Shown here: positions 4,024 through 4,185 of the stretch, piece by piece
Position numbering within the stretch: the first letter of the stretch is position 1
Layout: the number at the start of each line of letters is the position of its first letter
Source: a virus
Taxonomy: Duplodnaviria; Heunggongvirae; Uroviricota; Caudoviricetes
Strand: one strand, 5' to 3'
DNA length: 64,000 nt
Virus record (IMG/VR): IMGVR_UViG_3300032312_001770
Span: 1-64,000 of that record
Position numbers and translations under genes: made by a program
Notes under the pieces: model-generated
What the model was told of the DNA's origin: nothing
The model's input: only the letters and a program-made list of their open reading frames with translations
The model's database searches: none

Positions 4024-4094
4024 CACGCCTGCCTGGACTCGAACCAAGAACGTTTGTTTTGGAGACAAAAATGATACCATTTCACCACAGACGT
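4024..4094 (-). tRNA. tRNA-Trp (anticodon CCA), canonical
   Basis: Anticodon arm TTTGT-CTCCAAA-ACAAA (loop identical to E. coli Trp); acceptor ACGTCTG/CAGGCGT, G73. Confidence 0.65.
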
Positions 4095-4103
4095 ATTTTT
4101 TAG

Positions 4104-4185
4104 CACACCCGGAAGGACTCGAACCTTCAACCACGCTTACGCATTACCGGGTTGGAACCGGCTGGTCACGCCAATGAGCGGATGT
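4104..4185 (-). tRNA. type II-like tRNA with anticodon CCA (17-nt variable region); paralog of the Trp tRNA
   Basis: Acceptor ACATCCG/CGGGTGT, anticodon arm GCCGG-TTCCAAC-CCGGT, T arm GAAGGTTCGAGTCCTTC; the 3' end is nearly identical to the upstream Trp gene. Confidence 0.4.

Follow-up and report, generated by a model that had tools for sequence, protein, structure and literature searches.

The window analysed here, a 64,000-nucleotide (nt) stretch of a Caudoviricetes virus (IMG/VR record IMGVR_UViG_3300032312_001770), carries near one end an array of transfer RNA (tRNA) genes that in this part all lie on the minus strand, and one of them, at 4104-4185, departs from the standard tRNA architecture. 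Comparison with homologues on other viral and metagenomic contigs suggests that this gene encodes a functional, architecturally non-canonical elongator tRNA-Trp of a family residing in the tRNA arrays of huge (Mahaphage-type) phages, a reading to which we give a probability of roughly 0.6. The family is well supported as a conserved gene and is a new structural variant of tRNA. Its most likely role is that of a working UGG-decoding Trp tRNA within the tRNA set supplied by the phage.

The 4104-4185 gene and its homologues

The sequence-only reading of this DNA had described a canonical tRNA-Trp at 4024-4094 followed by a paralogue with the same CCA anticodon and a long, type-II-like variable region. 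The sequence features quoted for the two genes are all present, on the minus strand. The genes are adjacent as described, but in transcription order the odd gene comes first and the canonical tRNA-Trp lies downstream of it after a 9-nt gap. Read as RNA, 4104-4185(-) begins ACAUCCG C UCAUUGGCGUGA CCA GCCGG UUCCAAC CCGGU AA UGCGUAAGCG and continues UGG UU GAAGG UUCGAGU CCUUC CGGGUGU G, with 16 nt in the D region and 17 nt between the anticodon stem and the T stem. The two Trp genes have in common GGUUCGAGUCC, the discriminator G73 and the trailer CUAAAAAA, and both acceptor stems are Trp-like, starting with ACGUCUG in the canonical gene and ACAUCCG in the odd one.

ARAGORN reports ten tRNAs within 2472-4493; one is tRNA-Trp(CCA) at 4023-4094, and four are tRNA-Lys, three of these with a length of 84-88 nt. 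The Trp call, together with a match of 56.7 bits to the Rfam tRNA model RF00005, bears out the canonical assignment of 4024-4094. ARAGORN makes no call at the odd gene in the window, and RF00005 run over 8 kb gives no match to it at E≤10. When the 93-nt stretch containing the gene was scanned with Rfam at maximal sensitivity, the best model was that of tRNA-Sec (RF01852) at 24.2 bits against a cut-off of 47, with RF00005 scoring below this. Single-sequence folding of 4104-4185(-) gives z = -0.56, no better than shuffles, a z-score that we judge uninformative. Because the gene alone folds no better than shuffled sequences, the case for it rests on its relatives. Rfam and ARAGORN both fail to recognize the second gene, an outcome that the sequence-only reading had named as telling against a tRNA, but this failure is overridden by comparative covariation.

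Relatives were collected by scanning IMG/VR for sequence patterns, along with a single scan each of metagenomes and genomes; every part of the molecule was left free at least once. We found 55 distinct homologues, most of them exactly 82 nt long, on huge-phage and metagenome contigs of up to 508-711 kb; of the first 26, ARAGORN recognizes just 3. With the D region disregarded, every sequence retrieved had the form C8-UCA-N6-UGA-C. When the anticodon was left free along with the 5′ side of the D hairpin, each of the 33 members obtained carried C8-UCA and CCA. A search for this scaffold with other anticodons, by anticodon-free scans of viral and metagenome collections, gave CCA only. A bacterial housekeeping origin was also rejected: among the first 120 matches listed from 185,579 species genomes, one was a true member, and it lay on a 4-kb contig of a metagenome-assembled genome. 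The tRNA array of the window matches two unannotated uncultured-phage records, LR745206.1 (634,780 bp; labelled L001) and LR756502.1 (642,428 bp; labelled L002), and the three arrays have in common the gene order Phe-His-Phe, odd gene, Trp and four Lys. Among GenBank phages only LR756502.1, in its unannotated record, has a copy of the family.

A covariance model built from the 55 sequences (R1) scores family members at 74-105 bits, one per locus, and all other tRNAs in 317 kb at no more than 40 bits; the window gene scores 105.3 bits. The LR756502.1 copy (L002 3433-3511(-)) lacks three nucleotides of the anticodon loop, which now reads UUCC, has a mismatch in the stem of the small variable (V) hairpin and carries a U discriminator, and it is probably a decaying pseudogene, from which it follows indirectly that the loop is maintained in the other members. 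A neighbouring tRNA-Trp-like gene in the same record is likewise without an ARAGORN call. At the syntenic position of LR745206.1 (L001 3505-3582(-)) there is a different gene of about 75 nt, with a UUCCAAC loop, no extra hairpin, no ARAGORN call, an apparent 7-8-bp anticodon stem with one bulged C, and an R1 score of 29.8 bits.

We consider it highly improbable that 4104-4185(-) is a degenerating copy of the tRNA-Trp beside it or a tRNA-like fold that arose by chance. The missing ARAGORN and Rfam calls, the z of only -0.56 and the broken anticodon loop of the L002 copy would all suit such an origin, but it is refuted by 55 distinct homologues from many samples that keep a fixed length and show compensatory changes in their helices. 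These homologues and their compensatory changes uphold the earlier view of the second gene as genuine, conserved and tRNA-like, with anticodon CCA. Its description as a paralogue, if taken to mean a recent copy, does not stand, since the D hairpin, anticodon arm and V hairpin are near-invariant across phages while canonical Trp genes differ widely; by this comparison the odd gene belongs to an old lineage and is not a recent paralogue of its Trp neighbour.

Architecture of the family

Structure was assessed on the alignment of the 55 sequences with 26 proposed pairs, and pair numbers such as 7-83 and 22-62 refer to its columns (positions in the window are given in Table 1). Standard pairs fill 98.7% of the pair cells, and 20 of the 26 pairs have changed on both sides. 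None of 500 shuffles was as good, and slid partners pair at only 32-41%. Every cell of the anticodon stem is paired, with double changes in three of its five pairs, and all five pairs of the T stem have double changes, followed in the T loop by invariant U63, C65, A67 and U69. Pair 7-83 covaries (GC 37, AU 14, UA 3, CG 1), which makes base 7 part of the acceptor stem. The alignment in this way shows a 7/5 acceptor/T branch and a T loop of the canonical type throughout the family.

The D region does not follow the canonical layout: it has one linker base and a hairpin made of 9-12/17-20, and the bases beside the anticodon stem pair instead with bases that follow the V hairpin. C8, U9, C10, A11, G15, G17, U18, G19, A20 and C21 are invariant in 55/55 members, also in scans that left them free, and because these bases never vary the D hairpin shows no covariation. 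A fourth pair, U12.G17, probably closes the UGGC loop, and RNAalifold predicts a D hairpin of 4 bp. A group of tRNA-Ser(CGA/UGA) genes has the same compact start as the Trp family, namely C8, a 3-bp hairpin, 3 nt and the anticodon stem (L055 9045-9132; L047 5257-5343 and 5433-5519; L004 678-764; L010 10827-10914; L089 4438-4522). The hairpin of this Ser group does covary (CCA/UGG vs CUA/UAG), lending indirect support to the invariant UCA/UGA hairpin of the Trp family.

The bases abutting the anticodon stem form, with those directly after the V hairpin, a proposed 3-bp helix that we call helix X. Its combinations are CCA/UGG in most members and otherwise CUA/UAG, CUG/CAG, CAA/UUG and CCU/AGG, with no exception to pairing. 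Pair 22-62 is CG in 49 sequences, UA in 4 and AU in 1, and column 62 is the best mutual-information partner of column 22. We infer helix X as a part of the structure from 4-5 independent compensatory events. The V hairpin has double changes in all three pairs (UGC/GCG becoming, for example, UUC/GAG or UCC/GGG) and is capped by a GNRA-type loop, GUAA, GUGA or GCAA. Because helix X encloses both this hairpin and the anticodon arm, the small hairpin is not a class-II variable arm. The type-II-like body claimed earlier gives way to a different picture, in which only 10 of the 17 nt of the variable region form a 3-bp GNRA hairpin, itself enclosed by helix X. Altogether, the alignment shows a rebuilt tertiary core, with C8 and the UGGC-loop D hairpin replacing the D arm and with helix X as a new element. 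Neither G15 in the D loop nor C65 in the T loop ever varies, as would be expected of a normal elbow with a contact of the G19-C56 type. We argue that the D hairpin (about 4 layers), helix X (3) and the anticodon stem (5) would together approach the length of the tRNA-Sec anticodon branch.

Other pairings were tried and rejected. A D stem of the kind given by minimum free energy (MFE) folding, U13G14G15/C21C22A23, fails in 8 of 26 sequences, and no compensating change is seen. A 6-bp D stem of the Sec kind, which would draw in G7 and C8, clashes with the covariation of pair 7-83 and with helix X. A fourth V-stem pair proposed by RNAalifold, A50-U61, becomes A.C in L051, whereas G23-C61 remains Watson-Crick there. 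The rule that matches GNRA loops to their receptors pairs GUAA with CC:GG and GUGA with CU:AG. It fails here, as L004 combines GUGA with CCA/UGG and the CUA/UAG members keep GUAA, so the loop of the V hairpin does not covary with helix X.

Probable tryptophan identity and decoding, and the linked short synthetase

The anticodon loop reads YUCCAAM in 54/55 members, and all 54 with an intact loop carry CCA. The sole exception is the L002 copy, whose V-stem mismatch and changed discriminator are consistent with decay. By this conservation, the decoding features of the family are under selection. Acceptor marks are A1-U72 in 41/55, C2-G71 in 41/55 and discriminator G73 in 51/55, and the canonical tRNA-Trp genes of the same phages bear the same marks, starting ACG... 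or ACA... and ending ...GUG; co-resident tRNA-Ser genes start GGA/GGAG. In E. coli the Trp identity set consists of G73, CCA and the first acceptor pairs (PMC2965240). Since the bacterial Trp identity set is kept (CCA, G73, A1-U72/C2-G71), charging with Trp is the expected outcome. The odd tRNA would be transcribed with its neighbours, processed and given its CCA end, would be charged by the host tryptophanyl-tRNA synthetase (TrpRS) and, where present, by a phage TrpRS of 240 amino acids (aa), and would read UGG.

A different use of the same anticodon is that of a recoding tRNA, in which CCA would also read UGA as in the Hirsh suppressor, or the extra hairpin would recruit the seryl- or leucyl-tRNA synthetase (SerRS, LeuRS) so that UGG is mistranslated. 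UGA reading is classically gained through changes in the D stem or D region of tRNA-Trp(CCA) (PMC11805395), of the window's few TGA stops two stand directly before TAA, and suppressor-type tRNAs with UUA and CUA anticodons occur in related arrays (L046 4571-4648; L008 1848-1919). We nevertheless regard recoding as quite improbable. With a G+C content of 30%, the window translates well in the standard code; its 59 open reading frames (ORFs) of at least 100 aa end in TAA (52), TGA (7) or TAG (0). Reading TGA or TAG as sense lengthens no large ORF of the window, and extensions past TGA amount to 0-21 codons, which leaves room for read-through at a low level. Furthermore, the acceptor is Trp-like at A1-U72 and C2-G71, unlike the start of the co-resident tRNA-Ser genes, and the hairpin differs from a class-II arm in being limited to 3 bp and enclosed by helix X. 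ARAGORN also reports tRNAs of undefined type (tRNA-???) with 2- or 4-base anticodons in L010, L014, L049, L054, L055 and L058.

In some relatives the family gene is linked to a short TrpRS gene. A tblastn search with E. coli TrpRS gave a match in LR756502.1 about 0.8 kb from its family tRNA gene, and no TrpRS match in LR745206.1, the closest relative by nucleotide match. The encoded protein, which we call mini-TrpRS, aligns only to residues ~6-233 of solved TrpRS of 326-348 aa. Because the alignment stops at ~233, about 100 C-terminal residues are missing, and these we take to be most of the anticodon-binding domain. The mini-TrpRS family comprises more than 120 clusters at ≥73% identity, nearly all of ~239-250 aa, on contigs of up to 711 kb. 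In a search that started from the protein, a family tRNA gene precedes it on the same strand, 0.1-1.4 kb upstream, at 6 of 8 independent loci; of the two others, one carries a pair of ordinary tRNA-Trp genes instead, and the other an adjoining gene for the RtcB ligase but no tRNA. Near mini-TrpRS in relatives we also observed a class IIb-type synthetase (400 aa), a SerRS, a 211-aa fragment resembling the histidyl-tRNA synthetase (HisRS) and a gene resembling the alpha subunit of the phenylalanyl-tRNA synthetase (PheRS). Synthetase-like and RtcB genes lie at L348 3743-4945, 7632-8903, 9838-10473 and 10482-11582, L349 8557-9195 and L350 6752-8146. The amino acids of these neighbouring synthetase-like genes overlap those that have long twin tRNAs.

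The linkage raises the idea that the RNA is a dedicated substrate of the truncated phage TrpRS, which would read the D hairpin, the V hairpin or the acceptor rather than the anticodon and would serve translation or another Trp-tRNA-dependent reaction. The enzyme keeps HIGN and KMSKS, aligns only over ~6-233, is conserved as a large family and follows a family gene directly in 6/8 loci; the absolute invariance of C8/UCA/UGA suggests a sequence-specific reader, and other shortened synthetase-like genes lie nearby in relatives. Such a dedicated pair is unlikely all the same. There is no mini-TrpRS in the 64-kb window or in LR745206.1, it is found near only 3 of the 21 family loci with enough flank, one locus (L347) couples it to Trp tRNAs of ordinary length, and the anticodon is conserved although an enzyme of this kind would not need it. 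A broader version, which we hold to be rather unlikely, makes the rewired tRNA-Trp and the 240-aa TrpRS a private pair within a wider phage translation subsystem that is insulated from the host pool and its defences. Here the long or rebuilt twins (Lys, His, Asn, Phe, Ser and others) would be served by phage-encoded, partly truncated synthetases, and the Trp pair would be recognized through the invariant D hairpin or the GNRA hairpin and not through the anticodon.

Why a second Trp species is kept is a further question. We favour, as a hypothesis, robustness against loss of the normal tRNA-Trp pool: the altered body would sustain Trp decoding when that pool is attacked or depleted during infection, and the arrays' other long twins, such as those of Lys, His and Asn, would be there for the same reason. 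Evasion of host tRNases by phage tRNAs is documented (PMC10264068), a bacterial tRNase specific for tRNA-Trp, VapC37, has been described (PMC13657306), and these phages carry genes for RNA repair (PMC7162821). The same literature on tRNA-targeting defences and phage countermeasures could be read in favour of a decoy, a tRNA-Trp look-alike that acts outside translation by binding or soaking up a nuclease aimed at tRNA-Trp, or some other defence protein that binds tRNA. A mimic would equally benefit from the conserved anticodon loop and acceptor marks, and the body is unusual enough for tRNA models to miss. We find this improbable, as the intact 12-bp acceptor/T branch, canonical T loop, U33/A37 and fixed length of 82 nt exceed what a decoy needs, and the gene is linked to a TrpRS-like gene.

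Several observations weigh against a functional elongator tRNA-Trp. The odd tRNA lacks U8, the canonical D stem and the tertiary pairs; the stack of about 4+3+5 layers matches the normal length by argument only. Support for helix X comes from few variants (6/55, ~4-5 independent events), and folding programs (MFE, RNAalifold) do not predict it. Mini-TrpRS is absent from the 64-kb window and from 18 of the 21 family loci with at least 2.5 kb downstream. To our knowledge no tRNA-Trp nuclease is known for the presumed Bacteroidetes hosts, and defence evasion has no direct support here.

If the odd tRNA does work in translation, the conserved tRNA core (U8, the D stem and the 8-14, 15-48 and 26-44 contacts) could be replaced by plain helices in a different topology, one that RNase P, the CCA-adding enzyme, a synthetase, EF-Tu and the ribosome would all still need to accommodate. 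With the truncated TrpRS linked to it, the odd tRNA would be a testable natural candidate for an orthogonal Trp pair, and the family gives a way into the question of why huge phages keep altered duplicates of certain tRNAs. Because standard finders miss a family found in dozens of genomes, tRNA counts of huge phages are underestimates.

Table 1. Positions of the odd tRNA-Trp gene, its structural elements and related genes (window coordinates unless a locus label is given)
Feature	Position	Strand	Details
Non-canonical tRNA-Trp(CCA) gene	4104-4185	minus	82 nt including discriminator G (4104); CCA end not encoded; trailer CUAAAAAA
Acceptor stem, 5′ strand	4179-4185	minus	RNA 1-7 ACAUCCG; pairs with 4105-4111; 7/7 pairs with double-sided changes; 99.7% of cells paired
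Acceptor stem, 3′ strand	4105-4111	minus	RNA 75-81 CGGGUGU; discriminator G73-equivalent at 4104
Invariant C8 (4178) and compact D hairpin	4166-4178	minus	RNA 9-20: U9C10A11/U18G19A20, UGGC tetraloop
Helix X, 5′ strand	4163-4165	minus	RNA 21-23 CCA; abuts anticodon stem; pairs with RNA 53-55
Anticodon arm	4146-4162	minus	RNA 24-40 GCCGG UUCCAAC CCGGU; anticodon CCA 4153-4155
Small variable (V) hairpin	4134-4143	minus	RNA 43-52 UGC GUAA GCG; preceded by linker AA 4144-4145
Helix X, 3′ strand	4131-4133	minus	RNA 53-55 UGG; directly after V hairpin, 2 nt before T stem
T arm	4112-4128	minus	RNA 58-74 GAAGG UUCGAGU CCUUC; preceded by linker UU 4129-4130
Canonical tRNA-Trp(CCA)	4024-4094	minus	ARAGORN; RF00005 56.7 bits; anticodon loop CUCCAAA
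Canonical tRNA-Lys(UUU)	3851-3924	minus	74 nt; beside long Lys genes
Long tRNA-Lys (CUU, UUU, UUU)	3568-3652, 3659-3742, 3750-3837	minus	84-88 nt; normal D arm, 13-18-nt variable insert
mini-TrpRS ORF	L002 1952-2671	minus	239 aa; Pfam tRNA-synt_1b 131.7 bits; HIGN and KMSKS kept
mini-TrpRS in relatives	L058 4581-5303		plus strand; just downstream of Trp tRNA genes
mini-TrpRS in relatives	L345 10001-10711; L348, L349, L351 ~6001-6744		just downstream of Trp tRNA genes

Known tRNA types, twin genes and neighbouring features

The nearest described kin are, besides bacterial tRNA-Sec, the allo-tRNAs and (8/4) tRNA-Ser/His known from bacteria and phages (Mukai et al. 2017, PMC5389517). The family resembles them in having a non-canonical cloverleaf within phage tRNA clusters, a short D stem with a 4-nt loop and an extra hairpin after the anticodon arm, and an (8/4)-type tRNA-Ser in the same window (2752-2834) has a UGGC D loop like that of the odd Trp gene. 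However, the branch is 7/5, supported by covariation, and not 8/4, 9/3, 9/4 or 8/5; the D stem is 3-4 bp, the D-side stack is split and the hairpin is enclosed by helix X. Against the 6-bp D stem of the Sec type, the family has three invariant pairs plus U12.G17, and a 6-bp reading would need C8.C21 and G7-C22. CCA and a Trp-type acceptor also set the family apart, Trp not being among the types reported in PMC5389517. With class-II tRNAs (Leu, Ser and bacterial Tyr) it shares an extra stem-loop between the anticodon and T arms and a total of 82 nt, but its hairpin, of 3 bp, is on the anticodon side of helix X, its D loop is 4-6 nt and not large, and its anticodon and acceptor are of Trp and not of Leu, Ser or Tyr type. 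Relative to the canonical RF00005 cloverleaf, the family keeps the 7-bp acceptor, the 5-bp T stem with a UUCRANU T loop (all 12 pairs covarying), and the 5-bp anticodon stem with a 7-nt loop, U33 and purine 37; it lacks U8, the two linker bases and the 4-bp D stem (10-13/22-25).

Nematode V-arm tRNAs (nev-tRNAs) have class-II bodies with Gly or Ile anticodons on a Leu body with Leu identity, and are charged with Leu. The family is like them in placing a class-I anticodon on a tRNA with an extra arm, but its acceptor marks follow the anticodon (Trp), which by sequence argues against mischarging. The Hirsh suppressor, E. coli tRNA-Trp G24A, is likewise a CCA-bearing tRNA-Trp altered in the D region (PMC11805395). 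It differs by one base change in a canonical tRNA, whereas here the whole core is rebuilt and the window gives no sign of UGA reading. Among tRNase-resistant phage tRNAs are T5 tRNA-Lys against PARIS, T5 tRNA-Tyr against retron Eco7, and anticodon-loop variants (PMC11464382, PMC11555353, PMC10264068). As with these, the odd gene is an extra phage copy in a tRNA array that is structurally unlike the standard species; they, in contrast, are canonical cloverleaves with few base changes, the anticodon loop of the odd tRNA is almost a standard Trp loop, and its resistance is a hypothesis. We found no description of long-arm or non-canonical phage Trp tRNAs in the literature, where incomplete full-text coverage leaves an earlier description possible.

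Family genes always lie inside tRNA arrays, usually 4-28 nt from another tRNA-Trp and in either order. Such a Trp pair is present in most related phages, the partner being a canonical or a long-arm tRNA-Trp. A third kind of tRNA-Trp, 80-88 nt long, occurs in some phages; its body is truly class-II and bears a similar GNRA hairpin (L047 4119-4204 is one example), and these genes form a group separate from the odd family. Twins were counted over 57 loci with a family member or the L001 variant, covering 438 kb and 420 ARAGORN calls. Versions of at least 80 nt account for 36/91 Lys, 15/49 Trp, 8/50 His and 4/13 Asn genes, and they also occur for Ile, Met, Asp, Phe, Cys, Glu, Val and Arg. Because long twins are frequent, the idea that an isoacceptor with a long twin is a systematic feature holds, but the loci were chosen around the Trp gene. 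The three long tRNA-Lys of the window had been likened to the odd Trp gene; they score 52-64 bits with RF00005 and have an inserted variable region, and because they keep a normal D arm they are of a different design. The same tRNA-Lys set is present in LR745206.1 and LR756502.1.

Other tRNA-like genes of the window also escape ARAGORN. Two with Ser anticodons (UGA), 2752-2834(-) and 2663-2746(-), score 46.5 and 38.7 bits with the tRNA-Sec model (cut-off 47). In its predicted fold, which is like the (8/4) allo-tRNA-Ser type, the first has an acceptor stem of 8 bp, D and anticodon stems of 6 bp each, a UGGC D loop and a long arm capped by GAAA. The segments 3298-3438, 3451-3562 and 3104-3175(-) match the tRNA model end to end at 42.5, 44.5 and 26.5 bits, again with no ARAGORN call; two of them, at 141 and 112 nt, have large insertions that are perhaps introns. 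A His(GUG)-like tRNA of 85 nt at 4500-4584(-) has an oversized, irregular D region, an Rfam tRNA score of 23.4 bits and no ARAGORN call, and the syntenic gene in LR745206.1 (L001 3834-3908) is a normal 75-nt tRNA-His.

Pfam gave no match for the window's largest ORFs, which measure 1055-1852 aa, and its 20 largest ORFs include no aminoacyl-tRNA synthetase gene. Pfam matches elsewhere in the window are an S1 RNA-binding domain at 27554-28651(+), a NAD-dependent DNA ligase at 16896-18725(-), a collagen-repeat ORF at 1062-2018(+) and an SbcC/Rad50-like ATPase at 55445-57193(-). In the A-rich spacer of about 100 nt between tRNA-Trp and the first tRNA-Lys there is a 9-11-bp hairpin in both the window (3941-3975(-)) and LR745206.1 (L001 ~3275-3310(-)), with different sequences. 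Terminator-like hairpins on the tRNA strand flank the array segment at 4626-4600 and 2963-2924.

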